IMG/VR virus record: IMGVR_UViG_3300014204_000004
Coordinates: 39,710-103,709 of that record
Source of the DNA: a virus
Lineage: Duplodnaviria > Caudoviricetes
Length of the DNA: 64,000 nt
Reading direction: 5' to 3' (one strand)
Numbering within the stretch: the first letter of the stretch is position 1; each line of letters begins with the position of its first letter. A program made the translations under genes and the position numbers. Of this stretch, positions 1,049-35,818 are shown in pieces. The notes below the pieces were generated by a model. It had not been told where the DNA came from, ran no database searches, and was given only the letters and a program-made list of their open reading frames with translations.

Positions 1049-1807
1049 CTACTCTTTCTTCTTGAAAGTCACCACGTCATTCTCGTCTATCTTGTAACCA
1101 AAATGCTCGAAGCCTGCAATCTCTCTTATCTCTTTCTGTGCCGCGTCGAGCGACCTGATTGCATCTCGCCTCTTGTCATACGTGATAGCGAGTTTGCCCT
1201 GCAGTTTATCTAACCCTATGAACCATGAGTTACTGCCTATTATCTTGCAGGCAATCTCAAACAGTCTGAGTGCTACGGGATTGGTGAACTTCATGATGGT
1301 GGCTATAGGGATATTTCTGGTGAACTGCATTTCGTGTAAATCTAAGAAAGCCTGCTCGACAGTCACGCATATCTTGTCGCGTGAGAGAAGGAGGTCGCCC
1401 ACTATGGCGAGACTTCGTACAGATTTAGACTTACTACTCGTCTCATAGAAAGATTCGTCTGTAAATTCGAGCCTCGTGTTTGCAAGGCGCTTAAGGGACC
1501 TGTCTACACGGCGGTAACTATCTATGCACATAGTGAGTCCCATTGATTGTACCAGTTCATACACAGATTTAAACTCAATCACATTTGTGCCACGCTTCTG
1601 TGCCTCGTACATCAAGAGGTACAGCATCTTCTTGTCGAAGATAGTAGGCAGACCATACTTTACAGTCGTTAGCGTGAACCCATTGTCATCTGTGTAGTGG
1701 TCCAGCTTCGCTTTCTTTGATGAGGCAACGAACAGAGGTCGGTCTAACAGATTTATGTTGTGCCTCACCTTCTTTACTACATCGTGTTTCTTGATTCGTC
1801 TTTTCAT
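1049..1807 (-). CDS. plasmid-type replication initiator (RepA/Rep_3-like winged helix)
   Basis: NLLDRPLF, GLPTIFDKKMLYLLM, SLKRL and ALRLFE motifs typical of iteron-binding initiators; iterons adjacent. Confidence 0.7.
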   Translation of the reverse strand: MKRRIKKHDVVKKVRHNINLLDRPLFVASSKKAKLDHYTDDNGFTLTTVKYGLPTIFDKKMLYLLMYEAQKRGTNVIEFKSVYELVQSMGLTMCIDSYRRVDRSLKRLANTRLEFTDESFYETSSKSKSVRSLAIVGDLLLSRDKICVTVEQAFLDLHEMQFTRNIPIATIMKFTNPVALRLFEIACKIIGSNSWFIGLDKLQGKLAITYDKRRDAIRSLDAAQKEIREIAGFEHFGYKIDENDVVTFKKKE

Positions 1808-2256
1808 AACAGTCTACCTCCAGACCGCAGTGCTTCTCGTATGTTCATAATCATGATGCCCAGTCTGTTCTGACCTACACTGGTCATCAAGTCTACACCC
1901 CAGAACGTATCGTGCCACGTATTGCCTTCAACTATGCCTTCGTTATCTGTGGCAAGCAACAGTTCTTTGAAGTAGTCCTGATTAAACTTTTGGTTCAGTA
2001 GCTTACGCATCACACGAACCTTAATCACATCCCAGCGTGGTGTAAGAACAACGTGTTTGCTGAATGTCTTGCATACCGCAGGTGACTTGTTCGCACAGAA
2101 CTCCTTCCACTTGAGGTCGGGGTTCTTGGCAGACTGATATGCGTTCTCTACTGTCTGATACTTCATGCCATCAAGCTCAACTAAGCAAGGGTAGAAATTG
2201 CTCAGCCATTTATAGTCGTCTACGAATTGATTTATCATGACTACGCCTCGATGCAC
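1804..2256 (-). CDS. NADAR (YbiA-like) family hydrolase
   Basis: LSNFYPC, TVENAYQSAK, W..IK..VM....KF, LLAT, EGNTWHDTFWGV and GQNRLG motifs. Confidence 0.92.
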   Translation of the reverse strand: MHRGVVMINQFVDDYKWLSNFYPCLVELDGMKYQTVENAYQSAKNPDLKWKEFCANKSPAVCKTFSKHVVLTPRWDVIKVRVMRKLLNQKFNQDYFKELLLATDNEGIVEGNTWHDTFWGVDLMTSVGQNRLGIMIMNIREALRSGGRLL

Positions 2257-6670: not shown

Positions 6671-8773
6671 CTATACCTCCTCGTTTTGTGTTACTACTGG
6701 TTCGCTTATTGCCGTGTTATGAATAAGCAGTTGCTCTAACGTGTCTACGATTAACGGTATCAAGTTACGAGCAACGCTTACGTCCTGTCTGAATATGTTA
6801 GGCATGCCCACGTTCAGTGATATTGAGTTGACGTTCTGGTGCGTCACAACTTCATGCGTTGATTGGTCTCTGAACACTACGACAGTAGGTGCCGCACCTA
6901 AGGGCGGTGCGCCTTCTGCCACTGCTTCGGCATCGTTGATGCGATGAATGTCTGTCATGTACTCTCTCAATGCTACAGGTGCAGGTACAGGAAGATTCGA
7001 TACGAACCCTCTCGCTCTTCTGTAACCAAAGAGTACGAGGTTCACATGCTTGAGCAATCTTTCCGGTATTATTCTCTCACGCAGAGCACTTGTTAGACTG
7101 TTTCTCACGCGCAGGTCCCATTCATCTCTGTACGTGAGATGCAAAGCTCTTACAGAGGGGCTATCTGGTACCTCCTCATCATAATCGTCGTCCTCATCGC
7201 ACTCTACACCAGGCTGAGAATCTTCTGGCATTGCGTTTACTCTGCCAAGAGGATGTTGTGCTGATACTCTGCCTGTGTTTATGGTCGCGTTAGGGTCGGC
7301 AGTCAGCATAGGCTTATCTACTCCCCACTCGACAAGCATCCTGTCGTTACGTGCGCCCACTCTTACGAGCACGTTGTTTATGAAATTCAGGTACGTCTGC
7401 GCCTCTTCTGGTTCGAGACCTGCTGTATCAACAAGCTCTTTGAACCCAATTGGATACTTGTACGTGAACTCTTTTACTCCGTTAACGAATCTGTTGGTGA
7501 TATTCTGTGCTATCTTGTACGCAAGCCTCGTTATCTCAGGTGTCATGAAGATTAAAGCAGGAGCACTGCGATACTCGAAGCCCCAACCCTTAGTCTCATA
7601 GGCACCGAGTGTCTTGTAACCTGAACGTGCCTTACCTGACAGATTGAGAGTAGGTGCGCCGATGAAATCGTCCAACATCTTAACCAGATGTTGAGGCGGT
7701 ACATATGTTCTACCGACACCGATGTGTATGTGACCACCTAAAGGATAACTGTGGCCTGCTACACCTAAGTCATACGCGGGGTACATGCGATAGAACCTTT
7801 CAAGCAGGTGCTTGAGAATATCGACAGCTTCTTCGGGTGTAGTTGCGGCACGAGGTCTAAGCTCGACCTGTGAACCAGCACCGTCTCTGCCTAACCCACC
7901 TTCAGGGTGCGACGTGGTTTTTATCTTGCTTGAAGCGTTAACCACCTCGTTGCTGTACCGACTTACAAGCTCGAACTCTGGGTCAGAGCCTAACTGAATC
8001 ATAAGTCTGGGGCGTCTGCGCTTTCTGATAATGACTCTCTGAAGAGGCATGAGGTCGAGTCTGTCTACTAACGCATCATAGAGTATCTTGTCGATGAAGC
8101 GTATGCCATAAGCAGAGTGCGACCAGTCACCAACGATGAGTATGTTGTTGTTCGGTATGTACAGACCCATGAATATATTGCGCCCTCTTGCAGGTCTGTC
8201 GCTACTCTCGCCATAGCGCACTGATACACGCATGACAATCTTTACCGCCTCGAACACGGTAACAAAAGGGCTAATGCCGTTCTGCTCGTCTGTCAGTTCT
8301 TCGTTGATAATCATAGCCTCTAGTGCCGGCTTGGCTGAGGTGGCTCTGTGCGAATCGTTGTCGTAAGAGAACTCGCCTCTCTTGGGCTTCTCTGCTACCA
8401 TATCGAAGAACTTTCCATACAGCAGATGTTTGTACGTTGCAAAGTGCGTGAGTCTTGGCATACGAACCGTGCGTATTATCTTGAAGCGTACAGTGTCACG
8501 CAGGTTCTTTGGTTCGCAGAAAGCGTACACAGTATTGTTCCAGTTTTCGCTGAGATTGAGGTACGCGTGTGCTCTGCATTTGTTGAAGTAGTCCTTCATA
8601 ATCTCGAACAGACGACCAACGTATTCTACGTTGTTGTGGTCCGGGAGTTGCAGGCTACCGTCAGCGTTTCTGTTAGGGTCTCTGACCCAATCGGGCAACT
8701 GTGGTATGACTATACGAGTAGGTCTACTGTCTGATACTTCGTTTCCCATATGATTGATGGTCACGTCACTCAC
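6671..8773 (-). CDS. phiEco32-like COOH-NH2 ligase type 2 (amidoligase) with long N- and C-terminal extensions
   Basis: LGSDPEF, GRDG..VELRP, GGHIHIG and GFEYRS motifs. Confidence 0.85.
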   Translation of the reverse strand: MSDVTINHMGNEVSDSRPTRIVIPQLPDWVRDPNRNADGSLQLPDHNNVEYVGRLFEIMKDYFNKCRAHAYLNLSENWNNTVYAFCEPKNLRDTVRFKIIRTVRMPRLTHFATYKHLLYGKFFDMVAEKPKRGEFSYDNDSHRATSAKPALEAMIINEELTDEQNGISPFVTVFEAVKIVMRVSVRYGESSDRPARGRNIFMGLYIPNNNILIVGDWSHSAYGIRFIDKILYDALVDRLDLMPLQRVIIRKRRRPRLMIQLGSDPEFELVSRYSNEVVNASSKIKTTSHPEGGLGRDGAGSQVELRPRAATTPEEAVDILKHLLERFYRMYPAYDLGVAGHSYPLGGHIHIGVGRTYVPPQHLVKMLDDFIGAPTLNLSGKARSGYKTLGAYETKGWGFEYRSAPALIFMTPEITRLAYKIAQNITNRFVNGVKEFTYKYPIGFKELVDTAGLEPEEAQTYLNFINNVLVRVGARNDRMLVEWGVDKPMLTADPNATINTGRVSAQHPLGRVNAMPEDSQPGVECDEDDDYDEEVPDSPSVRALHLTYRDEWDLRVRNSLTSALRERIIPERLLKHVNLVLFGYRRARGFVSNLPVPAPVALREYMTDIHRINDAEAVAEGAPPLGAAPTVVVFRDQSTHEVVTHQNVNSISLNVGMPNIFRQDVSVARNLIPLIVDTLEQLLIHNTAISEPVVTQNEEV

Positions 8774-8941: not shown

Positions 8942-9376
8942 TTAATCTTCAAGGCTGTTGTCTGGTGCTCCGAAGCCTGCGATGTATTCTATCCAGTCTT
9001 CAATCAGAGTCTCTTCGCGTAAGATGTGCTCCTGTGGCAGGACGTGATAGATGATGCCTTTGACAGTCAACACATTGCCTGCGTCATTTGTTATCTCAAC
9101 AGCGATAACCTCTTTTTTGTAACCGAAAGGTAGCTCCAGATTGTCGAGCATCTTTTCGACCACTGCGTTTACTTCGTATGCTTCTACCACGAATGAGTGC
9201 TCGCCTGTGCCTTCTCTGTCGAGCACAGCTTTCGGGTAACCGCCGACGTTGTACATCTTGCCTTTTACTCTGCCTTTGCCGAGACAGGTCACTTTGTTCG
9301 TTGTGCCTTTCTCCTGAAGTAGATAGTGATTGTAACTACCTTTGCGTAGCGTACCATAAACAAATGCGTTTTTCAC
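8942..9376 (-). CDS. gamma-glutamylcyclotransferase (AIG2-like)
   Basis: FVYGTLRKG, GGYP and LDNLE motifs. Confidence 0.9.
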   Translation of the reverse strand: MKNAFVYGTLRKGSYNHYLLQEKGTTNKVTCLGKGRVKGKMYNVGGYPKAVLDREGTGEHSFVVEAYEVNAVVEKMLDNLELPFGYKKEVIAVEITNDAGNVLTVKGIIYHVLPQEHILREETLIEDWIEYIAGFGAPDNSLED

Positions 9377-13354: not shown

Positions 13355-14215
13355 TCAGCTACCTTGTGATTCTTCCCATCGTATCTTCAACTCTTCCTTA
13401 TGCTCGTCTGCAAGAATAAGAAAAGAGTCAGCAATCTCTTCAGCCGCCATACGACCACGAACAATCTGTACCTCGGCTGATATGAGTCTCATTACTTTGT
13501 CTTTAAGAGTGAGAGGTCTCTCGTTGGTGCGCTTCTCAACTCTTTCGCCGTTGGGTTCTTGCTTGAGCAGTGCGTTCTTAAGGCCCCGTATGACATCATT
13601 CGGCATGTTGATAGCATCAGATGTGTCACCACGCATAATGGGAAACATTCTTCGCAACGCTGAGAAGAACTCTTTTACTGTGGTCTCACCAAGATGAGTG
13701 GTCGTGGTTACATCTGAGACCGTCACGCGGTTGTTTTCTTCGGCTATCTCCAAGAAGGCATCACGCATGCGCTCGATGTTAGCAAAGGCGGCAGGCGTAT
13801 TGGTTGGCACATGAATGATGACTCGTCCTCTGTGCTGTATTGAATACAGTCTGTTGGGTACGCTTGTCTTGTTGCCAGGCGTATCGAGTTCACTGTTGTG
13901 TGCCGCACGATACTGGTCATAGTCAGGCCATCTTACCTCTTGTGGCTTGAAACATCTGAACTTCACACCCTGCCCGAACATGGCAATTCTTTTGAAGATG
14001 CCTCTGTTCATGTCATGCAGTGTTTGGCAAATGTCGGTCACGTAGGTTTTGCTGGCGTCTGTATTGTCGACCACGCTGTTGACATGTATGGTGGTGGTAA
14101 TTCTTCGCGTGCCGATTAGCTCATTCTTAATATGACTGATTACTTTGTTGTATACTTCTAATCCCTCACTCATCTTTCTCCTCCTCTTCTTCGTAATGAT
14201 GACCACGATGTTCAA
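13355..14215 (-). CDS. winged-helix-like protein, paralog of the downstream gene
   Basis: Shared NKV..., Y(V/I).DI, NRL...PTN.P and T.xDV motifs. Confidence 0.5.
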   Translation of the reverse strand: MNIVVIITKKRRRKMSEGLEVYNKVISHIKNELIGTRRITTTIHVNSVVDNTDASKTYVTDICQTLHDMNRGIFKRIAMFGQGVKFRCFKPQEVRWPDYDQYRAAHNSELDTPGNKTSVPNRLYSIQHRGRVIIHVPTNTPAAFANIERMRDAFLEIAEENNRVTVSDVTTTTHLGETTVKEFFSALRRMFPIMRGDTSDAINMPNDVIRGLKNALLKQEPNGERVEKRTNERPLTLKDKVMRLISAEVQIVRGRMAAEEIADSFLILADEHKEELKIRWEESQGS

Positions 14216-14816
14216 GCATATACAATGAGGAACTGATATGCTTATCGAACACGTTGCCTATTTTGTGGGTTAAACACCCGCACTTGAACACATCGCCATT
14301 AGGCACCACGAACAGTTCGTCACATCTGCAACCTTCTGTGGCTTCTGGTAGCTCAACAGCCCTGCCACATTTCTTTATGTTGCCACTGACATCACGTATC
14401 TCTCGAAAGTCGTTATCAGACTGACCATAATTGAACGCAGTCTTCTTCGGTCTTTCAAATGCCTTTGAGACCTCTGGGTCTATGGGTTCATGGTACACAT
14501 CGAGCGACAGGCACACAGACAGTATTCCATGTCGAGCAATGTTGGCAAGTCTTAAAGCCTCCTTCTTATTCTTGCCGTTAGTAGCGAGCCATATAGGACC
14601 TTCAGGTGTTCTGCCCTGAGCTATACCCACCATCTGCCAGAACTTAGGATGTATAGTTGGCTCACCACCACCGATAGATATATACTCACCGCCGTCTTCA
14701 GCAAGGTCACATGCCTTCGTGAAGGTCTTCAGACTCATGTCCTCGCCTACATCGGTACAAGCAAAGCAACAGTGAGCACATCGCATATTGCACCGCGTGG
14801 TTATCTGTATATACAT
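14166..14816 (-). CDS. radical SAM protein
   Basis: CNMRCAHC (CxxxCxxC), GGGEPTIHP, ATNG and SLD motifs; twitch-like C..LFV.PNGDVFKC. Confidence 0.92.
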   Translation of the reverse strand: MYIQITTRCNMRCAHCCFACTDVGEDMSLKTFTKACDLAEDGGEYISIGGGEPTIHPKFWQMVGIAQGRTPEGPIWLATNGKNKKEALRLANIARHGILSVCLSLDVYHEPIDPEVSKAFERPKKTAFNYGQSDNDFREIRDVSGNIKKCGRAVELPEATEGCRCDELFVVPNGDVFKCGCLTHKIGNVFDKHISSSLYMLEHRGHHYEEEEEKDE

Positions 14817-23355: not shown

Positions 23356-24227
23356 GTGCCCTCCTTCGGCGCGTATAAAAAAGAGAGGTGAGGTAGACGA
23401 GGAGAGGTGAGCTTGTCGTTTCATCAGGCCACTCATGATCGCCCTCCGCGGTAGCTACGCGCTACACTCACCTCGACACATTCTAATGCCACCTCAAGGT
23501 TGCGACCCTTGCTCAGTAAAGATGACAATTGTGCCACTACCTCATCTACCTCTTATAACCCCTCAAATACAACCACTACTCTTGTACTACGCCTCGATAT
23601 TATAAACTACTCTGGTTACTACGGATCAGTTTGTATACTCTCACAACTCAAGTAAGCCACGAACTCAGCGTGGTACTCACTACACAAATGGTGCAGGTTC
23701 AATGTGAGCTAGAATAAATTCTACCTCTGCAACATAACCACACTCACCAGTGGTACATCTATATGCACCACGTATTACAAAGTTTAATACCTGAACTACC
23801 TAAAACCTCGTATTAAAATGCACGTAAAACCTCATTAAACCAATAACTCAGGTTATTAATACCTGTACATGATATTACCTCCTTATATTACCACTAACCA
23901 AACCACATCAGCCACCTAACCACAGTCTAATAAGGTAGAATTGAACCAGTCTAGCCACGAAAAGAGCATACTACGGGAAGCACTGATAAACCTGAATAGT
24001 ATAACTTCCCTGCGTATGTATACTTATACTCGTTATTTCTTTACTTACCTCTTTAACCTCTATTCTTTTCAATCTACTCTTGCATATTCACACACAGTAG
24101 AGAACATAACAAAATGAGGTAAGGGCATAGTCAAGTATAGCCAAAAGTATGCCAGGTTATAGTCAAAATTACGTTTCCATGTATAAAACGTGTATAAAAG
24201 GTGGCACGGTCTAATCCTTATTTGTAC

Positions 24228-24975: not shown

Positions 24976-25090
24976 GATTTGCCCTCCTAAGGCTCGTCTG
25001 CGTGGTGCATTTCCCTAGCCACCACGCAGGTGACTGATTCTACCTCCTGAACACGAGCACGGCCATAAGTATGACGAACAGCAGGTCCAG

Positions 25091-25696
25091 CTATTTGCCT
25101 TTTTTGGCGGTGCCTTTCTTCGCCGGTGCGTCTTTCTTGGTGACTGCTTTCTTTGCCGGTGCAGGTGACTCTTTCTTGGTGACCGGTTTCTTCGCGTCTG
25201 TCTTTTTGGCCGGCTTGGTGGCCTCTTTGGTGACTTTCTTTGCTTTCACAGGTGCTTCTGCCTTTGCCTTTGCGGCAACGCGGTACACTACGCAGACCTG
25301 GCCTGTGCCGTTGGTGTCAGCCATGCGCCGCAACTCGCCATCTTTGACCTGGTACACGCCGTCTTCGAGCTTGATACCTTTGGTCTTGACTGTCGTACCG
25401 AAGGCATCCCAGTTGGACGCGGCACCACGACCGAAACCTGACCGCCTCACCTCTTTACCATTGACGCCTTTGACTGTTACTGCTTTTGCCTTTACTGCCT
25501 TTACTGCCTTTTTCGTAGCCATTGGTGGCCTCCCTCTGTTAGTAGATTGTGGTTCGGTTGCACCTTCACCTTCACCATCACCTTTGTGCCTGCCGTATTC
25601 CTCGGCGAGCCTCTCGAACGCAGGTGTATTTAACGCGCCTGCATTGAGCAAGGCAATGGCATCGGCTCTGATGGTGTCTATGGACATGGTACGCAC
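25091..25696 (-). CDS. histone-H1-like Lys/Ala-rich DNA-binding protein
   Basis: C-terminal PAKK/TKK repeats; internal GGAGG-ATG at 25522. Confidence 0.65.
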   Translation of the reverse strand: MRTMSIDTIRADAIALLNAGALNTPAFERLAEEYGRHKGDGEGEGATEPQSTNRGRPPMATKKAVKAVKAKAVTVKGVNGKEVRRSGFGRGAASNWDAFGTTVKTKGIKLEDGVYQVKDGELRRMADTNGTGQVCVVYRVAAKAKAEAPVKAKKVTKEATKPAKKTDAKKPVTKKESPAPAKKAVTKKDAPAKKGTAKKGK

Positions 25697-25779
25697 CTCA
25701 CCTTTTTAATTGCATGGGTTTATACAACCCATGTGATGACTCGGTTCGTCTGAACACGGTCATCTCTGCTGTATGAAAC

Positions 25780-25808
25780 ATTATATTACATATCATATTA
25801 CAATGCAA
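25780..25808 (-). promoter_or_regulatory. sigma70-like promoter
   Basis: TTGCAT-17nt-TATAAT. Confidence 0.7.
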
Positions 25809-26142
25809 CAGTTATTTTTCGACAGTAATTTCAACAAGTTATAGCGCAAAGCGGACTATAGCTGGTCGTAAAGCCACATAATACCACGTCATTTCGATGA
25901 GTACCGCCCGCGGCACGCACACGAGAGAGCACCGAACCATGGCTCGGACTAGCTAATGCCAAGGTCAAAGCCGAGGAACAGTGGCCCCTTCCCGTGGGCC
26001 GAGCGCGCCGAAACATATACTACCTATACGTGGTGATTGCTTTAACAGCCGTCAACACTATGTGGCTATCGAACTATCTACATACACACCTCCTTCGGTT
26101 TATTTACTGGGCGCTACTCTTGAGGGATAATGTTGCTACTGC

Positions 26143-26472
26143 TTAGCCTCTCATTCTTATAGAGGGCTGTCTGGTCTTGAACGCTACGGGAATACCATCG
26201 TCGACCTTTTGAATCTCCTGTTTCAGGTTCTTCTTCAACCTCCTTATCTCGTTCTTCATCATCTTGGTGTTCTCGTTCTTAATAATGTAGTTACCGAGCC
26301 GCTGTTCAAGATGTGCAATCTGCGCCCTCAGGATGTTAATGTAATTCTCCCGTATCTGCTGACCGCGTGTTGGTATCACCTCCTGTTTCTTCTTGCGCCT
26401 CTTCTTACGTTTCTTCTTGACCAATACTAAGGGCTGTTTGAGGATGATTCTGATAATGTCTGCTACTGTCAT
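26143..26472 (-). CDS. basic coiled-coil hypothetical protein
   Basis: GGAGG RBS, KKKRKKRRKKK tract. Confidence 0.55.
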   Translation of the reverse strand: MTVADIIRIILKQPLVLVKKKRKKRRKKKQEVIPTRGQQIRENYINILRAQIAHLEQRLGNYIIKNENTKMMKNEIRRLKKNLKQEIQKVDDGIPVAFKTRQPSIRMRG

Positions 26473-26525
26473 GATGTGCTACCTCCTTTTAAGTGATGGG
26501 ATGTAAAGTCCCACTGTGTGTTTGC

Positions 26526-27029
26526 CTACCTTCTCGATACTCTGATTATCGAACCAATATTGATAACGTCGAACTCGATAGCGTGGCCATCAAGTTCAAT
26601 CTCGCGCTCACCGTTCTCATCGATAGGTCCAAAGAACTGGTGAATGATTTCGAGCACTCTCTTTACAACAGGTGCTCTCATCTCTTTCCAAGGGATGCGA
26701 TTGAGGTCTGGTTTGCAACCTGCTTCGTAGCATCTCTGCATCTGTTTCTTTAATTCTCTGAGGTCGATGTCAACAAAGGGAGTCTTACCGGCTCCCTTCT
26801 TGGTAATAGATTCAGCTTCTCTTTGCTGTTTCACTATTACTCTTCTCTGTGCATCAACATCTACCATCTTAGCAGGTGCAGGCATACCCTGACCGAACGC
26901 CTCTTTAAGACGCGCTGTTGCCTTAGCAAAGCGGTCTTCAGTGATTGGTACTAGAGGTTCAGATGCTACCTCTTTGTGTGATACAATGGTGACGAGACCT
27001 TTGTTTGTGTAAACGGTTCTTCTCTTCAT
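26526..27029 (-). CDS. hypothetical protein
   Basis: AGGAGG RBS, 167 aa. Confidence 0.6.
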   Translation of the reverse strand: MKRRTVYTNKGLVTIVSHKEVASEPLVPITEDRFAKATARLKEAFGQGMPAPAKMVDVDAQRRVIVKQQREAESITKKGAGKTPFVDIDLRELKKQMQRCYEAGCKPDLNRIPWKEMRAPVVKRVLEIIHQFFGPIDENGEREIELDGHAIEFDVINIGSIIRVSRR

Positions 27030-27269
27030 GATTTACTTCCTCCTTAATTGATTGAGTAACTACGCGAGTGTGCCACCAACTGCTCGTTTCTGTAAACGTC
27101 AGTGATGAACCAGTACTTATACTTCGGGTCTGGTCTCTGAATGATGGTAGTTCCAAACAATATGTACCACATTTCGATACGGCTGACGACTGATGCTAAG
27201 TTCATTTGCTACCTCCTAGTTTTGTAGAGGGGAAGACGTGTGCCTCCCCTCTCGACTTGAAATGAGTGA

Positions 27270-28091
27270 CTACTTGCTGAGTTTGATGTACCTTACACAG
27301 ACATGAACCTCTTTTGCTACGTAGACATACGGTCTGTCGCTCAGTACTTCAACTACGATTGCTTTACCTTTGTACTGTGCTCTGAACTTCTCGACAATCG
27401 CTTTGTCCTTCGCTGTTGCTCTTATCTCGAACTCTTCGAGAGCCTTTGCGTTCTTGCCTGCGTTCTTTCTGATGAAGACGGTGAGGTTGTGAGTATCGGT
27501 GGTGAGTTTGCGTTTCAACACGGTGACTGATGCTTTGTCGATGAGGTACACTTTGTCGGTCTTAGGGTCAAGCTCGACCTTGTTGTTGTACTTTGCAAGC
27601 GACTCTCTCACGGTGACTTCTGAACGGATGAAGTTGTGTTTTGGTGCTTCTACCTTCTTTGTACCTTTCTTCATGGCTTTCTCCTTCTTGTTAGTAGTAG
27701 TCGCTTTAACAGCGACCTTCTTGGTTGCAACTGCAGGCTTCTTAACTTCTGCTTTCTTCGTTGTCTTCTTCACGAGTGCTACCTCCTTTTTGGTGTTTGC
27801 TTTCTTGACAGGTGCTTTCACTGCGGTCTTCTTGGTTGCTACTGCTTTGGTCTCAACTGCGGCTGTCTCGGCTTTCTTTGTTGTCTTAGGCATGGTGGTC
27901 TCCTTTTTAGTATTTGTTTTGGTATCTAATACTGCGTTTGCTTTTGCGAGGTACGCCTCAACTGCCAGACGCTCTTCCTCTTTCTTCTTCTTCTGGACGT
28001 CATACACGGTTTCGATTGGTGCAGGTGCAGGTGTCTTCTTTGTTGCAACGACGGGTGCTACGACTTTTGTGCTCTTTCTTGCGATTGCCAT
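27270..28091 (-). CDS. histone-like Lys/Ala/Thr-rich protein with a globular C-terminal domain
   Basis: Repeated ATKK/TTKKAE; three internal in-frame SD+start sites. Confidence 0.7.
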   Translation of the reverse strand: MAIARKSTKVVAPVVATKKTPAPAPIETVYDVQKKKKEEERLAVEAYLAKANAVLDTKTNTKKETTMPKTTKKAETAAVETKAVATKKTAVKAPVKKANTKKEVALVKKTTKKAEVKKPAVATKKVAVKATTTNKKEKAMKKGTKKVEAPKHNFIRSEVTVRESLAKYNNKVELDPKTDKVYLIDKASVTVLKRKLTTDTHNLTVFIRKNAGKNAKALEEFEIRATAKDKAIVEKFRAQYKGKAIVVEVLSDRPYVYVAKEVHVCVRYIKLSK

Positions 28092-28168
28092 GATTATCTA
28101 CCTCCAAGTAGTTGTCTGCGAGGTGGCGTATCTTTCAACACCACCTCTTGAATTGTCGTGTTCAAGTG

Positions 28169-28933
28169 CTAGTCTGCGTCTATCTGCTCATCTAAATCGG
28201 TATACGGGTTACCTTCAGGCATATCGATGCCACAGTGGTCTTTGTAAGTCATTGCACACTCGTTGCACATCCGACCAGCGAATATACCAAAGCTGTACCT
28301 TCGGTCAACGGTTGCTTTTACTTCACCACACTTTCTGCAGGTGTACTCGCTCTGCTTACCAATGTACAGGCTCTTGAGTTTGAGGCACTGTTCTTCAGTA
28401 AACAAGACGCGTGACGGTTCAGCAGGTAACATCTCAAGGTCTGGCAATAAGGTGGGCAGGTCCAAGTCAATGGCTACCTTTGTTACCTCTTCGACGCTGT
28501 TAACCTCGACATCGGTCTTCAGCGTTCTCCAATCACCACTCTGTGTTTCAAAGAATATCGCGTACTTCATTTTGTTACCTCCTTGTTTGATTGCTACCTT
28601 CTTGTTCGACTCATACTCCGTCCATACAGCAAACCCTATACTGAACTTGCTGTCGTACCACCCAAAGTAAATCTTCTCTCCGGTCTTGTAAGTAATCTCA
28701 ATGACTGTCTTGTTGTCGATGTGCGCGTCAATGCCTCTCTGCTGAGCCTCAGCTATGAGATTGTCTCTGAGCTTTGAGAACTCATCGTTGTGCTTGTACT
28801 CAACCTCAAGCACTCTCTTGTGTACGCCGCTTGTGTATGCGTAGAACGCAGTTACTTCTGCATCGAAGGGCACGAACAACCGCAAATCCCTCCAGTAATG
28901 AAACCTTTTTCCGTTAATCTCTATCATTTCCAT
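28169..28933 (-). CDS. hypothetical protein with C-terminal zinc finger
   Basis: GGAGG RBS; CRKC...CNEC. Confidence 0.6.
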   Translation of the reverse strand: MEMIEINGKRFHYWRDLRLFVPFDAEVTAFYAYTSGVHKRVLEVEYKHNDEFSKLRDNLIAEAQQRGIDAHIDNKTVIEITYKTGEKIYFGWYDSKFSIGFAVWTEYESNKKVAIKQGGNKMKYAIFFETQSGDWRTLKTDVEVNSVEEVTKVAIDLDLPTLLPDLEMLPAEPSRVLFTEEQCLKLKSLYIGKQSEYTCRKCGEVKATVDRRYSFGIFAGRMCNECAMTYKDHCGIDMPEGNPYTDLDEQIDAD

Positions 28934-29903
28934 TTGCTACCTCCATTGAATAGATTGTCTCGTTTGGTAGAAGCGCACTCTCACCACGTGCAGGTAGAGA
29001 TTTAGAGAGCAGAGGTACACTTAGTGCGCTCTAAGTCGCACATCGGTGTACCTCGATTAGATTGTCAGGGTTTAAACAACCCTGTTAGCCAAGCATCTCT
29101 TTGAGGCACTTGTCGCATGTATTGGTGTTCTTCGGGTCATCGACCTTACCACCACATACACAGCAACCACTCATACCCTTGCCAGCCCTTAGCCTTCTGA
29201 ACGATGCTCTCACTGCTTCGACCAGTACTGTCTGTGGCACGCTACCAGTTACTACGATTACAGGATTCTTCATTGTGTTACTCCTTTTAGTTTTCTGTGT
29301 TTCTCTCTCTGCTACCAGCCTCTTCGATTACAAAAGTGTTGACACGTTCTACGATGCTGTCACTCATGCCTGCACCATAGCTCAGTGTAGGTACATGTGT
29401 TGCACATGTTACACACCTTGCACACATGTAGCACTCACAGTTCAGTACTACCTCTTCAGCGATGCTCTTCAACTCTTCTGCAACGACGTAATCTTTACAC
29501 ATCATGCACCTCCCAATGCTAATGTCATTGCCACAAAGCACATCACTACAATCAATAGACCATAAAAGAACTCACTCATTGCAACCTCCTTTTGTATTAT
29601 GCTTCCATGAAACGAATAGAACGTCTTTACCAATCTTACGATGACGTGACCTGTCAGTACTTCTGCACACTTGTCAGGATGAATACACTCACAGCAACGT
29701 GTACCACAGTTGATGAACCACTTAGATGCTGTCATGCACTACCTCCATTGATTGATGATTAACTCTACTTTCTGTACCACTTACCAACGATGCTCATGCA
29801 CCAGTGCATTGCTATCTTGCTACCAACTACATACTTCAGTACTCTATACAGCTTCACCCAATGCGTCGCTTTCACTACTCTCTTCATGTCTCTCTCCTTT
29901 AGT

Positions 29904-30227
29904 CTATCGAATGATATTGACTCTGATGAACTCTACTACTACCATGCTGTCATCTACTGTAAGCTCATGCTCTATACGCTTAAGGTTCACGTAATAGATA
30001 TCATTGAGCACTTGCAGTAATTCGTCTGTGCTGTTGAATGACTCTGCGATGTAATCAACGTCTTTGATGCTCTTGATGCACACGCTTGTTACGACATACA
30101 TATCATCGTCTACATAGAACGTGTCATGTGCTTGAGCATTGCTAGTGAGTCTACTCGTTACTGTCTTCTCACTATGGACTACTAATGCTTTCAAATCATC
30201 TTTGAATAACAGTTCGATTGTCTTCAT
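29904..30227 (-). CDS. hypothetical early protein lacking Gly, Pro and Trp
   Basis: 107-aa ORF with AAGAGAG RBS inside the GG/CC-depleted segment. Confidence 0.55.
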   Translation of the reverse strand: MKTIELLFKDDLKALVVHSEKTVTSRLTSNAQAHDTFYVDDDMYVVTSVCIKSIKDVDYIAESFNSTDELLQVLNDIYYVNLKRIEHELTVDDSMVVVEFIRVNIIR

Positions 30228-30576
30228 AGTTCACTCTCTTTGAATTAGTTTATTTGTTCTTTCCTTTGTAGTTCTTTGCTATCGCTTCACACTGCTCCTT
30301 CAGTGTGTCTACGCTTATGTACTTCACTGCTTCTTCGATTGCTCTGATGTCGTCTGCGGTTAATGATGTTGTCATGATATACTCTCTTGTGTGTAAGCAT
30401 TGACTTCACTCACTCTTACGACTGTAAGACTTGTGAGATGTAAGATGACTTACACTGTGATTACGTTTCTGATAAATACTCTTTCTTGCTCTTAAGTGAA
30501 TATGTCTTTACTGTGTAGAAAACACGAGAGGAAAAACGTTTCGCGTTGCTCTCTCTATCATTGGCGTGTGAAACTT

Positions 30577-30735
30577 TAGCCATAGCATTACATTATCCAT
30601 GGCACTAGCAATAGTTCTGAGGTTAGCCATAGCATTACCCTATCCATGGCACTCACCACAGCATAGTTCTGAGCCATTACATTACCCTATCCACGGTCAT
30701 AGCCACAGTTCTGAGGTTAGCCATTACATAGTCGT
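30577..30735. repeat. degenerate 47-nt tandem repeat (3 copies + partial)
   Basis: (T/G)AGCCA recurs at 30577, 30624, 30671 and 30718; shared TATCCA and AGTTCTGAG. Confidence 0.8.
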
Positions 30736-30892
30736 GAGATTGACCCCAATACCACCACCTTCACTCTTAAAAGAGTATGGTTAGAGCATTGAAGTACCTA
30801 CCACTCTTTATAATAGCGTGGTGTGACATATGGCTAGGATTTGTAAACGTTTCTGTACCTCGATATTGAGATTTTTTATGGTTAAAACTAAA

Positions 30893-30922
30893 TTGACACA
30901 TAACCGTACTGTGTAGTATAAG
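30893..30922 (+). promoter_or_regulatory. promoter for the morphogenesis operon
   Basis: TTGACA-18nt-TATAAG followed by AGGAGG. Confidence 0.55.
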
Positions 30923-30939
30923 AAGGAAGGAGGTGAACC

Positions 30940-31485
30940 ATGCCTAAGAAAAGGAAAAGAGGGAGAAAGCGCATACACCCTTTGACTATCAATGAGATAC
31001 CACTAGATAGAGCTGAGGCGGCAATCAGACTAGCTGGTGGTTTCTTGTCTAAGGCCGCTGAAACTCTGGGAATATCTTTACAGACGATGCAGTTGATGGT
31101 ACGAAAGTTTTCTACCTTGCGAGATACGTTAACTGAGGCGAGGTACAGAATAGTAGATATAGCGGAAGAGAGTTTGCAGAAGCTTATTGAAGATAAGAAC
31201 GTGACTGCGACTATCTTTGCACTGAAATGTCTTGGTAAGGAGCGTGGTTACGTAGAACAGTACAAACCAGGCTCGTCACCTGACGCACCTCTGTTCATTC
31301 GTGTGATGCCTGTAGCGCCAGTTAGAGGTAGACAGAACAGAGAGATTGAGTTGAACGTACCATCTGCTTTACCGCCACACAGAGAACCAATAGTAAGACG
31401 CAGGAGACAAAGGACTATAGAAACCGAAGCAGTTGAAGTAAGCGATGACCTAGGAATTGACCACAAGGTTGCACAGGAGTTATAA
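30940..31485 (+). CDS. terS: probable terminase small subunit
   Basis: Fis-like HTH (LSKAAETLGIS) and DIAE..L..LI....VTATIFALK..GK.RGY motifs; first gene of the arm, upstream of TerL. Confidence 0.6.
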   Translation: MPKKRKRGRKRIHPLTINEIPLDRAEAAIRLAGGFLSKAAETLGISLQTMQLMVRKFSTLRDTLTEARYRIVDIAEESLQKLIEDKNVTATIFALKCLGKERGYVEQYKPGSSPDAPLFIRVMPVAPVRGRQNREIELNVPSALPPHREPIVRRRRQRTIETEAVEVSDDLGIDHKVAQEL

Positions 31486-31515
31486 TTTCTTGTGGTTTAA
31501 ATTACTTAGGAAGGG

Positions 31516-31986
31516 GTGGTCATCGTGGAAAGAAAAGAGTGTGACGAAAACTTCGTATCTGTTAAGGTGTGTCAGGAGAGACATACTCAGATACAAATAG
31601 CTCATGAGGCAAAACACGGAGATGTGGTGGAGAAGCTTAAGGCACACGCAGAGGTCATAAGGGACGTAGACAAAGAGGTTTCAGAGAACTTTAAACATGT
31701 CCACGAACGCATAGACGAGTTCATGGATACGATAGTAGATACTACCTCACAATTAACTGCACTGGTAAACGATGAAGTGAAAGGTTTGATGGAGAAGGTG
31801 AACAATATTCAGAACAGCCTCAAGAATATGATGATATCCATTCTCATTTCTATTCTTATCAGTGTTATCGGGGCTGGTGTGTCGTTCGTTCTGTCTGAGA
31901 AGAAGTCGCCTGAGAATGGTAACGCTTCGATTGTTCTTGAACTCAAGAAGTTGAATGACAAAATAGACGTAATCGGCAAAAGATAA
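31516..31986 (+). CDS. coiled-coil membrane protein (holin/XhlA-like)
   Basis: Coiled coil plus one TM helix. Confidence 0.45.
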   Translation: MVIVERKECDENFVSVKVCQERHTQIQIAHEAKHGDVVEKLKAHAEVIRDVDKEVSENFKHVHERIDEFMDTIVDTTSQLTALVNDEVKGLMEKVNNIQNSLKNMMISILISILISVIGAGVSFVLSEKKSPENGNASIVLELKKLNDKIDVIGKR

Positions 31987-32001
31987 GCAAGGAGGCAACA
32001 G

Positions 32002-32391
32002 ATGGGTGATTTGGTGTACCAGATTTTTATTGACTATGTAGCACCAGTGCTGGTTTCAATCTTCATGATACTGATATCAGTAGTTCTTAAGAAGCTCCTC
32101 GATAGTCTGAAGCTCAATGTGAGCAAAGAGGCACAGGACGCAATGCTGAAATCAGCAGAAACGCTCGTCTTGGCAATCGAGGAAAGAGCGGCATCGAGCC
32201 TGAAACAGATTAGTATAGGTGGCGGAGATACTGGTGCAAAGATAGATAAGCTTGCCACAGTAATTTCGCTCTTGATGAAACAGTTTCCAGCGTTGACTGA
32301 AGAGAAGGCACAGCAGATTGCAGAGGCGGCAGTTGCCAAGTTACCAGGAATTGGCATAACTCAACTACAACTACCAACTAAAACGGAATAA
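32002..32391 (+). CDS. holin (LL-H-like)
   Basis: N-terminal TM, A..LV.AIEE, K...V and IAEAAV pattern. Confidence 0.55.
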   Translation: MGDLVYQIFIDYVAPVLVSIFMILISVVLKKLLDSLKLNVSKEAQDAMLKSAETLVLAIEERAASSLKQISIGGGDTGAKIDKLATVISLLMKQFPALTEEKAQQIAEAAVAKLPGIGITQLQLPTKTE

Positions 32392-32434
32392 ACGCTGGGT
32401 AGGACACGAAAGGTAAGGGAATAGAGACAATCAC

Positions 32435-33688
32435 ATGCCGAAACCAAGTCTAAAGCTAAAGAACGATGCCCTATTGGGGGATATGACAGCACCACAGAAA
32501 ATCGATGTACAGGTGACGCCTGTATTTACGGCGACGGCTAAAGCCAATACACGTATAGTACTCGAACGCGGTGGTGCTGGATCCAGCAAAAGTTATTCAA
32601 TGTGCCAACATTTGACCTTGAAATTCCTTCAGGAGAAGAAGAAAAAAATTCTAATCCTTAGAAAATCCCTCCCTTACCTTCGTGTATCTACGTACCTCAT
32701 GATGAAAGAAGTAGCAAAGGAGCTGGGTGTACTCGAAAGAATAAATGAAGAAAAGGTAATGCTCAACTGGACGTACAGGGACAACATGATACACTTTGGT
32801 TCACTCGATGACCCCGAGAAGATTAAGTCGAGCGACTGGTCCTACATATGGATGGAAGAGGCGACCGAGTTCACTTACCGCGATTTTATGCTTCTCAAGA
32901 CGAGGTTAAGAACCAAGTCTACTGACAAAGTAAAGAACCAGATGTACCTCAGCTTCAACCCTGTCGATGAATCTCACTGGATAAAAACAGAACTGCTTGA
33001 CAAGCGCATGCCTGGCGTTGGTGAGATACATTCTACCTACATGGACAACCCCTTTCTCGATGATGATTACATTGCCGACCTCGAAGAGATGATAAGGCAG
33101 GATAGAAATTTCCACCGCATTTATACTCTCGGCGAATGGGGCAAGCTTGACAATCTTATCTACTCAAATTGGGATGTCGTGCCAGATTTGTGGCCTGAGG
33201 ACGTTCATGATAGCATATACGGTATCGACTTCGGTTACAATGCACCATCGGTTCTGGTGCAGATAGGCATTAAAGAGAAAGACGTGTACGAAAAGCAGTT
33301 GATATATAAAGACCATCTCACGAACCAGATGTTTATAGAAGAGATGAAAAGGCTTATACCAGTACCTTTTAGAAAGCGTTCATTTTATGCTGACAGTGCC
33401 GAGCCTGACAGAATAGAAGAAATCAAAAAGGCAGGCTTCAATATTAAACCTGCCAACAAAAAGGTTAAAGAAGGAATTGACTTCATTAAGATGTTGCGTG
33501 TACATATTAGTGAATCGAGTGGAGACATTATAAAAGAGAAACGCTCATATAGTTGGCGTACAGATAAGAAAGGCACAGTGCTCGACGAGCCGGTCGGTTT
33601 CTTAGACCATGCTCAAGATGCTGAAAGATATGGTATATACACACACCTTAGAGGGTCGAAAGACTACAAAATCAGATGGGTGTCCTAG
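32435..33688 (+). CDS. terL: terminase large subunit, PBSX family
   Basis: GGAGSSKS Walker A, WMEEATE Walker B, SFNP, STYMDNPFL, GIDFGY, ADSAEP and DHAQDAERY. Confidence 0.95.
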   Translation: MPKPSLKLKNDALLGDMTAPQKIDVQVTPVFTATAKANTRIVLERGGAGSSKSYSMCQHLTLKFLQEKKKKILILRKSLPYLRVSTYLMMKEVAKELGVLERINEEKVMLNWTYRDNMIHFGSLDDPEKIKSSDWSYIWMEEATEFTYRDFMLLKTRLRTKSTDKVKNQMYLSFNPVDESHWIKTELLDKRMPGVGEIHSTYMDNPFLDDDYIADLEEMIRQDRNFHRIYTLGEWGKLDNLIYSNWDVVPDLWPEDVHDSIYGIDFGYNAPSVLVQIGIKEKDVYEKQLIYKDHLTNQMFIEEMKRLIPVPFRKRSFYADSAEPDRIEEIKKAGFNIKPANKKVKEGIDFIKMLRVHISESSGDIIKEKRSYSWRTDKKGTVLDEPVGFLDHAQDAERYGIYTHLRGSKDYKIRWVS

Positions 33689-33697
33689 GGGGAATCA

Positions 33698-35818
33698 ATG
33701 AGTAACTTCTTAATGACACGGGTTTTAAGTAATCTTGGTGTCAAGGCGGCGGCGAGAGGTAAGATAGGTCCAGACTTGACCAATATCAAGATGACCCTCG
33801 CACAAACGGTTGGTTTAAACGCCAGCGACAGGCTCGATAAGCCTTACAGTGATAGTATTTGGGTCTACGCTTCAGTAAATGCTATTGCTAACAACCTCGC
33901 AAAGGTGCCTCTTGTAGTTTATGAAAGAGGCACGAATAAGGCTATCACAGATGAGAACCATCCTGTGGTACGCATGTTCACACATCCCAACGTATATACG
34001 AGCAAGCTCACGTTCATCTTTCTGTTGAGCGCATACATAGATATATACGGTGAGGCGTTTATCGTTATGGATAGAAGCAATCCTAACGAAATACCAGCCG
34101 CCATGTACGCTTTCAGCCCTACCAAGTTTCAGCCAGTTATATCGAAAGACTACAATTCGATTGTCGGGTGGCAGTATCAGAAGGGCAGTGAGACTGTACC
34201 TCTTTCGACATATGAGATACGTCAGTACAAGTATCCCAACCCGTATGACGATATCAGAGGCTTCTCACCTCTCGAAGCTGGTAAGCTCAGTATTGAGCAG
34301 GACTTCTTCGCGGCAGTATTTAACAAGAACTTCTTCAGAGAAGGCGTAAGAGTAAGTGGTTACATAAGTGTACCAACAGAACTGAACGACGACTCCTTTA
34401 ACAGAATCGTTGACCAGTTTGAGCAGAGACATCAGGGTATGAACAAGGCACACAAGATTGCTGTCATAGACAACGACGGCAAATTCATCGAATCAAAGAT
34501 AACACAGAGAGACATGGAGTTCATCGAGTTACGACGTATGACGAGGCAAGAAATCTTTGCCATCTACAAGGTAAACGAAGTTGTTCTTGGTCTCTACAAC
34601 GAAGTTCAGTCCTATGAAGGCGTCAAGATGGCTCACAAGTCCTTCTGGGAAGAAGCAATGCTACCTCGTCTTATGTACCTTGAAGAGTTTCTGAACTACT
34701 CTGTTCTCGATACGATTGATGGTGGCAAGTACGAAGTAAAATTTAACCTTGCACAGGTTGGTGCTCTGCATGATGACTATACCGTTCGTGTGAGCACAGC
34801 AAAAGTATTAGTAAACTTGGGATGGCCGATTAACGCTGTTAATGAACGGCTAGAACTTGGTATGGAACCGGTAGCATGGGGTAATACGTGGTGGGTTCCG
34901 ATGGGTATGCTTCCAGTTGATAGGGTGCTGGCTGAGGCAGACCAGAGTCTTGAGAATCCTGAAACTCCCGCTGTTGGTCCGTACGAAGAAGAAGAGCCCA
35001 CAGAAGGCGAAGACGACGAAGAGGTGGCAGGGGATGAAGAAGATGATGAAGAAAAGCCAAAGCCCTCGACTGATGCAGACAAAGCCTCGTGGTCTAAGTT
35101 TCTGGCGGTTCAAACTCGGTTGGAAGAGCTTGTACGCGGTAAGGTAAAAAAGTTCTTCTTTGACCAACGTAAGCAGATTCTCGAAAATCTGTATAACGGC
35201 AAGACCAAGTTGATTGACATAAACAAAGAGACAAGAAAACTGCAACACATTCTTGGAGCCATCTATCTTGAAGGCACACGCTTTGGCTCAGAGATGATAA
35301 AGGCTGAATATGGCGTAAGCGAAGAAAGGTCACTTGAAGATGAGGAAATCTCAATCAAGGCAGAGGTCACAGCTTACGCTCAGACGAGGTTGAAAATCAT
35401 ACCTCTCGGAATGATGCGAACAGTCGTTAAGCAGTTGAACGCTGTGGTGCAGAACAAGAATCACGCAACGCGAGAAGACGTGGCAGAGGCAATCAGAGGT
35501 ATGTACAACAAGACCATACGTCGTGTGAACAATGTGATTGCCCGTACCGAATCTTCTTCAGTAATTGTAGTAGGTAGAATTTTGCAAATGCAGAGGCTAG
35601 GCGTAAGGCACCACAAATGGGTATCATCGAAGATAGATAAAGGTAGAGATGGTCACGCCAATCTGAACGGCAGAGTAAGACGTATTGGTGAGTCGTTCAA
35701 GGATGATAGTACTCTCAGATACCCAGGCGACCTCTCGTCACCAGGACATGAGGTGATAGGTTGCAGATGCTTTACAGTTATGGCTCAATCTATGGAAGGA
35801 GGATTAGAAAATGAGTAA
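33698..35818 (+). CDS. HK97-type portal fused to a Mu gpF/SPP1 gp7-like head morphogenesis domain
   Basis: VYASVNAIA, YGEAF and RGFSPL portal motifs; acidic linker; IARTE, KW, R.GH..LNG and YPGD...GCRC gpF motifs. Confidence 0.9.
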   Translation: MSNFLMTRVLSNLGVKAAARGKIGPDLTNIKMTLAQTVGLNASDRLDKPYSDSIWVYASVNAIANNLAKVPLVVYERGTNKAITDENHPVVRMFTHPNVYTSKLTFIFLLSAYIDIYGEAFIVMDRSNPNEIPAAMYAFSPTKFQPVISKDYNSIVGWQYQKGSETVPLSTYEIRQYKYPNPYDDIRGFSPLEAGKLSIEQDFFAAVFNKNFFREGVRVSGYISVPTELNDDSFNRIVDQFEQRHQGMNKAHKIAVIDNDGKFIESKITQRDMEFIELRRMTRQEIFAIYKVNEVVLGLYNEVQSYEGVKMAHKSFWEEAMLPRLMYLEEFLNYSVLDTIDGGKYEVKFNLAQVGALHDDYTVRVSTAKVLVNLGWPINAVNERLELGMEPVAWGNTWWVPMGMLPVDRVLAEADQSLENPETPAVGPYEEEEPTEGEDDEEVAGDEEDDEEKPKPSTDADKASWSKFLAVQTRLEELVRGKVKKFFFDQRKQILENLYNGKTKLIDINKETRKLQHILGAIYLEGTRFGSEMIKAEYGVSEERSLEDEEISIKAEVTAYAQTRLKIIPLGMMRTVVKQLNAVVQNKNHATREDVAEAIRGMYNKTIRRVNNVIARTESSSVIVVGRILQMQRLGVRHHKWVSSKIDKGRDGHANLNGRVRRIGESFKDDSTLRYPGDLSSPGHEVIGCRCFTVMAQSMEGGLENE

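Follow-up and report, generated by a model that had tools for sequence, protein, structure and literature searches.

A zone purged of GG and CC dinucleotides at the head of the leftward gene arm of an uncultured Caudoviricetes phage

Introduction

The genome of the phage recorded in IMG/VR as IMGVR_UViG_3300014204_000004 (Duplodnaviria; Caudoviricetes) contains a zone of 633 nt in which selection keeps both DNA strands nearly free of the dinucleotides GG and CC, overriding codon choice, the sequence of ribosome-binding sites (RBSs), and amino-acid content. The genome is a complete circular assembly of 103,709 nt, the two ends of which overlap by 123 nt. Coordinates given here refer, unless stated otherwise, to the window, i.e. 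the whole analysed stretch of 64,000 nt (positions 39,710 to 103,709 of the record). A landfill metagenome is the source of the phage contig, and Logan contigs of a groundwater metagenome include an identical strain; no close relative was found among GenBank phages.

Two gene arms diverge from the intergenic region at 30376-30939. The leftward arm of ~60 kb encodes, among others, a family-A DNA polymerase, a clamp and a clamp loader, DnaB, a primase, RecA, RtcB, and a VIPR locus. The rightward arm starts with a small-terminase-like gene, followed by the genes for the large terminase, the portal, and structural proteins. The purged zone forms the head of the leftward arm and comprises its leader and its first two open reading frames (ORFs), A and B. 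The zone, its border, and its continuation consist of the following features (aa, amino acids):

29897..30529, both strands: core GG/CC-purged zone, 633 nt, with six sites left (3 GG, 3 CC)
30550..30562: boundary motif TCTCTCTATCATT at the sharp right edge of the zone
30376..30529, minus strand: leader of the leftward arm with its promoter region, non-coding, 154 nt, with 0 GG/CC versus 7.8 expected (P 4e-4)
30382..30388, minus strand: GG-less RBS of ORF A, AAGAGAG
30250..30375, minus strand: ORF A, 41 aa, which opens the leftward arm and has one Gly and no Pro or Trp
30234..30240, minus strand: GG-less RBS of ORF B, AAGAGAG, within the 22-nt spacer between ORF A and ORF B
29904..30227, minus strand: ORF B, 107 aa, YqfB-like protein of ASCH fold, with no Gly, Pro, or Trp
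29085..29887, minus strand: partly depleted continuation with the small Cys-rich ORFs C-F (40, 77, about 73, and 62 aa), falling in bins with observed/expected GG/CC ratios of 0.45 and 0.63

Extent and specificity of the purge

The depletion had first been noticed in the stretch 29900-30579, for which only eight GG or CC dinucleotides had been claimed. The recount gave the same number (5 GG and 3 CC), compared to 51.8 expected from the base composition of this stretch, and the expectation falls to about 41 when it is scaled by the genome-wide observed/expected ratio for GG/CC of 0.79. The borders of the core zone were set by the positions of surviving GG/CC sites. With the genome-wide factor included, the count in the core has a Poisson P of 2e-10. 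Among all 633-nt segments of the 103.7-kb genome, the one at 29897 has the lowest count, 6; outside this area no segment holds fewer than 32, and the median is 52. Of all GG/CC-free gaps in the genome, the two longest (192 and 172 nt) fall inside the zone. The odds ratio for GG/CC in the zone is 0.13, which corresponds to an about 8-fold depletion. The odds ratios for CG and GC are 0.86 and 1.03, AT and TA show no departure from normal, and AA/TT is slightly reduced (0.73). The G+C content drops from 46% to 39% in the zone. The significance of the depletion is high, and nothing like it occurs elsewhere in the genome.

The original prediction had also claimed an abrupt end of the depletion at a 47-nt repeat, and this is true for one side of the zone. 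On the right, the transition is sharp: the last long GG/CC-free gap stops at 30530, the next sites follow at 30563 and 30580, and the repeats begin at 30578, so that the edge lies about 50 nt before them. Rightward of the zone, the observed/expected ratio jumps straight to 1.06. In contrast, the left edge is not sharp. The left border of the core coincides with the stop codon of ORF B, and from the zone leftward the ratio fades over about 4 kb in 500-nt bins of 0.11, 0.45, 0.63, 0.62, 0.73, 0.69, 0.64, and 0.71, before it reaches 0.93. The profile is thus polar.

Selection at the DNA level

All codons for Gly, Pro, and Trp contain GG or CC, so that a ban on these dinucleotides excludes the three residues from the encoded proteins. 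Translation of 29904-30227 bore out the earlier claim that all three are absent from the 107-aa protein. The contribution of codon choice was assessed by synonymous randomisation, in which the protein is kept and the codons are redrawn from the genome's own usage. ORF B has 3 GG/CC, compared to 15.1 +/- 3.1 in the randomised genes, and 0 of 3000 draws was as low. For ORF A, the respective numbers are 3 and 7.9 (P 0.014). Both RBSs do read AAGAGAG, as had been noticed before, whereas the later genes of the leftward arm use the RBSs AAAGGAGAG, GGAGG, GGGAGG, and AAGGAG. As synonymous sites, codon junctions, RBSs, and the non-coding leader all avoid GG and CC, selection acts on the DNA, and the depletion is not a by-product of protein composition.

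The leader folds modestly better than shuffled sequences (z -2.1). No match was obtained in an Rfam scan of the leader region, no convincing sigma-70 consensus was found in it, and a scan for terminator consensus sequences was likewise unhelpful. A minor variant contig in the source sample (depth 6/25) differs within the purged leader by a 1-nt insertion and a 1-nt deletion, at 30429 and 30465.

In the continuation to the left, ORFs C-E have fewer GG/CC than under synonymous randomisation (P 0.005-0.015), and ORF F and the next gene are normal. The word that ORFs D and E lack is CC on the mRNA strand (1 versus 8.2 and 1 versus 5.5, respectively). ORFs C-F bear CxxC-type motifs, and a similar Cys-rich tail is fused to the ASCH domain in one of the ORF B homologs (P0006).

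A YqfB-like protein without glycine, proline, and tryptophan

ORF B matches the Pfam family ASCH (PF04266) with 21.7 bits at a cut-off of 21.2, and a profile of the ORF B clade matches YqfB from Escherichia coli in the PDB (E 3.6e-4). The AlphaFold model of ORF B has a predicted local distance difference test (pLDDT) score of 91.8. The structures closest to this model are YqfB, with a template modelling (TM) score of 0.69-0.72, and other ASCH domains (0.62-0.72 for the top matches). The top 13 PDB matches all belong to YqfB, ASCH domains, or related small uncharacterised proteins (probability 0.98-1.0, TM 0.53-0.72). No match in family libraries was obtained for ORF A.

YqfB is an N4-acetylcytidine amidohydrolase with the catalytic residues Lys21, Thr24, and Glu74, the oxyanion-hole residue Arg26, and Tyr89 (PMC6972931). 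In an alignment based on a hidden Markov model, K21, T24, R26, E62, and Y78 of ORF B correspond to K21, T24, R26, E74, and Y89 of YqfB. Among the aligned family members, K21, T24, and R26 are invariant (11/11), E62 is nearly so, and Y78 is also invariant or almost invariant. ORF B resembles YqfB (PDB 9KYF/9KYH and 1TE7) in size, in fold, in the active-site Lys, Thr, and Arg, and in the aligned Glu and Tyr. It differs from YqfB in being only about 20% identical and in the motif glycine, which is present in AGRKT of YqfB and in SGKKT of remoter homologs and is replaced by Ser or Asn in the ORF B clade. Because the catalytic residues are kept and the fold is predicted with confidence, ORF B is probably a small, active hydrolase that does without Gly, Pro, and Trp.

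When 1.84 billion representative proteins were searched exhaustively with a profile, six further members of the ORF B clade (P0002-P0007; 99-175 aa, 39-61% identity) and four remoter homologs were retrieved; none was found in IMG/VR or among GenBank phages. The seven clade proteins including ORF B, with 827 residues altogether, contain 0 Gly, 0 Pro, and 0 Trp; the GG/CC content of the homologous genes was deduced from the proteins alone. In the remoter homologs (about 30% identity), Gly, Pro, and Trp make up 9-12% of the residues and occupy conserved motif positions, and these proteins show the canonical ASCH motifs SGKKT.T.R, HG..GD, and EG(F/M) as well as one Trp. At the Gly and Trp positions of these motifs, the clade proteins have Ser/Asn, Ala/Leu, His/Asn/Asp, Ser, and Leu. 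The substitutions within the clade are conservative (79% positives at 62% identity), which indicates working genes. Ala, the one extra residue that a ban on GC would exclude, is wholly absent from five of the seven clade proteins. Judging from these protein sequences, the state without Gly, Pro, and Trp has been maintained by selection over long evolutionary time, down to ~40% identity.

Position of the zone and its counterpart in a related phage locus

Between the purged zone and the genes of the rightward arm, the following features are located:

30578..30729: 47-nt repeat, three copies in tandem, lying between the divergent arms; candidate site of packaging recognition or of an origin
30763..30776: palindrome ACTCTTAAAAGAGT, adjoining the 47-nt repeats
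30940..31485, plus strand: first gene of the rightward arm, encoding a small-terminase-like helix-turn-helix (HTH) protein (PHROG 309 'terminase small subunit', E 2e-4; Pfam HTH_8)
32435..33688, plus strand: large terminase gene, assigned to the PBSX family by the annotation of relatives (tblastn against GenBank phages)
33698-35818: portal gene, 706 aa, directly after the large terminase gene in the ORF list

The minimum of the cumulative GC skew is found at 30766. Loci related to this phage were gathered by searches with the large and the small terminase. The nearest relative by the large terminase (54% identity) is a 9-kb IMG/VR contig, L001, in which the stretch 892-1590 (699 nt) contains 5 GG/CC compared to 38 expected. 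In addition, this stretch contains 0 GC compared to 18 expected. The order of elements in L001 is leftward genes, the purged stretch, an edge motif, tandem repeats, a palindrome of the type CTCTT-WW-AAGAG (W, A or T), and rightward genes including those for a small-terminase-like protein, which is 38% identical to its counterpart in this phage, and the large terminase. The edge motif of L001, TCTCTCTATACATT at about 1576-1589, is equivalent to the one at the edge of the zone in this phage. The two repeats of about 37 nt in L001 occupy the position of the 47-nt repeats and are unrelated to them.

The purged stretch of L001 has neither nucleotide nor protein similarity to the zone of this phage. 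It holds only tiny ORFs, one of which has an AAGAGAG site. As an unrelated purged sequence is found at the same place, the trait is positional and not an imported donor cassette; on this comparison of two loci, the purge appears to belong to the genome position and not to a gene alone. No comparable zone was found in the other loci related by terminase, which number about 190, total 1.85 Mb, and come from IMG/VR, JGI metagenomes, and GTDB genomes. A low-GG/CC segment in three of them (L037, L054, and L059) was rejected as a purge, as it encodes a Glu/Lys-rich scaffold-like protein.

The CTCTT-WW-AAGAG palindrome is located beside the tandem repeats both in this phage (30763-30776) and in L001 (GCTCTTTTAAGAGC, at about 1620-1635), and the edge motifs of the two sequences have TCTCTCTAT(A)CATT in common. 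The shared palindrome and edge motif are candidate protein-binding or end-processing sites. The portal gene of L001 (4079-7315 of that contig, plus strand) encodes 1078 aa, compared to 706 aa in this phage, and has a large central insert that looks like an intein or homing endonuclease.

Other genes of the phage

A divergent thymidylate-synthase-like (ThyA-like) protein is encoded at G000:C1:29047-29742 (G000 being the whole genome; minus strand; L193 9047-9742). Its best NCBIfam match is of the archaeal type with 86 bits, which is below the cut-off. A gene for a T4-type deoxynucleotide monophosphate (dNMP) kinase is located nearby at G000:C1:27322-27879 (minus strand; L193 7322-7879). This pair could serve ordinary dTMP (deoxythymidine monophosphate) supply or a hydroxymethyl-pyrimidine pathway.

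A NADAR-domain protein is encoded at 1804-2256 (minus strand; Pfam E 4.5e-20). NADAR proteins undo guanine ADP-ribosylation by DarT1, and orphan phage copies have been described as counter-defence (PMC11825919, PMC11543638). Further minus-strand genes, located in the early arm, encode a phiEco32-like COOH-NH2 ligase (6671-8773), a gamma-glutamyl cyclotransferase-like protein (8942-9376), and a radical SAM (S-adenosylmethionine) protein (14166-14816). In two genes for Lys-rich histone-like proteins (26526-28091, minus strand), mRNA-strand GG is low compared to synonymous randomisation (18 versus 39.8 and 18 versus 28.4), which possibly results from a preference for the codon AAA over AAG rather than from a purge.

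A proposed dinucleotide target in first-used DNA

The reading that we favour, with confidence at about the even mark, is that the zone is first-used and probably first-entering DNA that is kept free of a dinucleotide target read by a host agent. The head of the leftward arm, consisting of the leader, ORF A, and ORF B, lies beside the repeats and the terminase genes, where the packaged chromosome would most likely end. The DNA of the zone would then be packaged last and enter first, and it would have to function before any phage protein exists; hence it would be kept without the target of an agent that reads G (or C) plus its neighbor on DNA. Since the avoided unit is a dinucleotide, such a reader would need only two bases. 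The host agent, satisfied by one dinucleotide, could be a CRISPR effector with an NGG or CC protospacer-adjacent motif (PAM), which is the most concrete candidate, a nickase or nuclease with a very short motif, or a base-modifying enzyme. The leftward fading of the depletion would reflect later entry or later need. The products of ORF A and ORF B would act early; N4-acylated cytosine, in nucleotides or in RNA, is a conceivable substrate of the latter, and to regard the two as anti-defence candidates is a guess.

Several properties are in agreement with this proposal. An edge that is sharp towards the packaging genes and a tail that fades along the direction of entry and transcription fit the logic of leading DNA. 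In cos phages such as lambda and mycobacteriophage L5, packaging proceeds from the terminase side, so that the end that is packaged last and ejected first bears the early promoter. Both strands are equally purged in the core, and an NGG or CC PAM is, to our knowledge, the only known defence element of dinucleotide size. Avoidance of targets is also apparent genome-wide, with GATC (7 versus 350 expected), GCWGC (8 versus 152), and GGCC (107 versus 271), and with the further words CTCGAG (2 versus 39), TTCGAA (0 versus 29), ATGCAT (1 versus 22), and GAATGC (5 versus 35). Surviving GATC sites in the window include those at 23437, 23624, 32580, 38119, and 47542. The original proposal of a first-injected genome end purged of GG/CC-containing targets is supported in part, with respect to DNA-level selection, its maintenance in relatives, polarity, and the location at the head of the arm beside repeats and terminase, whereas restriction sites as the target of the purge are weakened (see below).

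Other observations weigh against this proposal. A contig from the source sample (run X1) crosses the zone unbroken (25000-32917), and the assembly is circular with its 123-nt overlap. The PBSX terminase family includes headful packagers, whose first-entering end is not fixed. No spacer-like match was found in 401 genomes of the phylum to which the metagenome-assembled genome with the closest terminase fragment belongs. Six GG/CC sites persist in the core, and selection per PAM site is usually thought to be weak, which is hard to reconcile with a purge that removes conserved glycines. GC is avoided in L001 as well, as is Ala in five of the seven clade proteins, and a single PAM leaves this unexplained; a combined ban on GG/CC and GC amounts to 'G then G or C' and looks more like the work of a single base-flipping enzyme or a nickase with a very short motif. 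ORFs D and E are without the word of one strand only, whereas a pure double-strand reader predicts otherwise. Finally, ORF B belongs to an ASCH/YqfB-like family and not to a known anti-restriction or anti-CRISPR family. A bolder version, which we put forward tentatively and with some doubt, is that an undescribed class of enzymes reading a base and its neighbor (here G-G/C-C, in the relatives G-S/S-C, where S is G or C) attacks or marks incoming DNA, and that unrelated phages answer with a purged leading cassette, in which first-used DNA of some hundred nucleotides would carry genes recoded to exclude three or four amino acids.

Alternative explanations

The main rival to a host reader is a modification of G or C by the phage itself in the context GG/CC (GS/SC in the relatives), with first-used DNA kept free of that context; the zone could then be read by unmodified host machinery, or type IV nucleases would find nothing in it before a countermeasure is made. 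We consider this unlikely. A single base-flipping enzyme that reads one neighbor would cover both {GG,CC} in this phage and {GG,CC,GC} in L001 and most clade proteins, and the explanation is kept alive by the divergent ThyA-like gene that adjoins the T4-type dNMP kinase gene, a pairing that recalls hydroxymethyl-pyrimidine pathways. However, the whole genome gave no Pfam match for TGT/DpdA or for DNA methyltransferases of the C5, N4/N6, and D12 types, and the best score of the ThyA-like protein is that for an ordinary thymidylate synthase of the archaeal type. Moreover, the extreme avoidance of GATC, GCWGC, CTCGAG, TTCGAA, and ATGCAT suggests that the DNA can be cut by ordinary restriction enzymes. 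Selection could instead act on RNA, if the first transcript is kept without GG and CC to evade an RNA-binding repressor or RNase, as exemplified by GGA-binding CsrA-type proteins and GGAG-cutting RegB-like enzymes, or to stay unstructured so that translation can proceed in the absence of phage factors. The zone is a plausible first transcription unit that consists of a leader and two genes and ends at the stop of ORF B, GG is gone from the ribosome sites, and the signal in ORFs D and E is strand-specific with mRNA-strand CC alone missing. In the core, however, both words are removed equally and no single known RNA reader requires both, and the asymmetry of the flank is not repeated in L001, where the word of the opposite strand is low. 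An explanation at the RNA level is therefore distinctly improbable.

Ordinary avoidance of restriction sites, i.e. of the sites of several host Type II/IIS enzymes that happen to contain GG or CC, is less probable still. Several restriction-type words including GGCC are strongly avoided genome-wide, and avoidance of sites in leading regions is documented, but palindromes without GG or CC occur in the zone at normal density (28 4-mers versus 28.7 expected and 4 6-mers versus 4.6). In addition, a segment of 633 nt should hold only about 1.4 GGCC plus CCGG sites, whereas the shortfall is ~40 dinucleotides and goes as far as the exclusion of three amino acids, so that a reader at the level of the dinucleotide is needed. 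At the bottom of the scale stands an origin without any selection on the word, be it a mutational footprint such as that of a cytosine deaminase acting in CC context, a cassette from a GG/CC-poor donor, or chance; it is largely refuted. The fall in G+C from 46% to 39% is what C-to-T decay would give, but AA/TT is lowered instead of raised, and all hetero-dinucleotides increase alike, AC/GT and CA/TG no less than AG/CT and GA/TC. The ORF B model is confident with its catalytic residues kept, and purifying selection has acted on a clade whose members are now 39-61% identical, none of which ever acquired Gly, Pro, or Trp. An imported cassette is at odds with L001, which has the same trait at the same place in unrelated sequence, and chance is excluded (P about 1e-10).

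Three specific candidates were tried and rejected. The VIPR system of the phage (at about 10.1-12.0 kb in the window) was ruled out as the cause, as VIPR is without a PAM or base-specific contacts. A link to DarT1 was dropped, as DarT1 of E. coli shows no GG-type consensus, although the phage has a NADAR gene. A link to 7-deazaguanine via DpdA was dropped since PF01702 had no match in the complete genome, whereas the controls were matched in 14/14 genomes.

Comparison with known systems

EcoRI sites and CRISPR protospacers are of consequence to phage T5 only within its first-step-transfer (FST, pre-early) DNA (bioRxiv 10.1101/866236, section 4.1.5), and in the T7-like Murciavirus a motif of Type I restriction-modification (RM) matters only in the leading region (PMC12455610). 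The purged zone resembles these regions in that it heads the early arm, contains tiny first genes, and is without a target that is common elsewhere in the genome. In T5 and Murciavirus, protective early functions are expressed from the target-free entering stretch. In contrast to the zone, these phages lose one defined site of 6-8 bp, whereas a whole dinucleotide is lost here at the cost of three amino acids. The T5 segment comprises 8% of the genome, has a stop signal, and enters in a two-step transfer, whereas the zone measures 0.6 kb and has a fading tail.

Genome-wide depletion of PAMs has been reported for GG in Streptococcus phages (PMC4246573) and for CC/GG, the type I-F PAM, in Pseudomonas phages (PMC12174588). 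The word avoided in the zone is identical to an NGG/CC PAM, it is avoided on both strands and independently of coding, and the genome-wide ratio of this phage is also low (0.79). The published PAM depletion is mild and genome-wide, whereas the zone shows a local and polar depletion of about 8-fold by which proteins are recoded; in addition, the extra loss of GC in the relatives is not accounted for by an NGG/CC PAM. As in classical restriction-site avoidance, GATC, GCWGC, GGCC, and several 6-mers are avoided throughout the genome of this phage, but the zone is not generally poor in palindromes and the avoided unit has 2 nt. A local dinucleotide purge in phages was not found described in the literature, where the search returned only the papers on genome-wide PAM depletion and on leading regions in RM and T5.

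Implications

The purge implies that something reads the GG/CC step on DNA at the very start of infection. We know of no defence that has been documented to impose such a purge. Avoidance of motifs as a classic route of phage escape is already known, and so is the fact that only the first-entering DNA must be free of targets. New in this case are the grain and the strength of the avoidance, as a whole dinucleotide is gone from a sharply bounded unit of 0.6 kb. The enzyme family of ORF B has been rebuilt without Gly, Pro, and Trp and mostly also without Ala, and thus represents a natural folded enzyme, as predicted from its sequence, in an alphabet of 17 or 16 letters. The footprint left in the DNA offers a direct route to finding the reader of the dinucleotide, and a purge of this kind may serve as a sequence signature by which the functional 'front end' of uncultured phages and their earliest genes are located.

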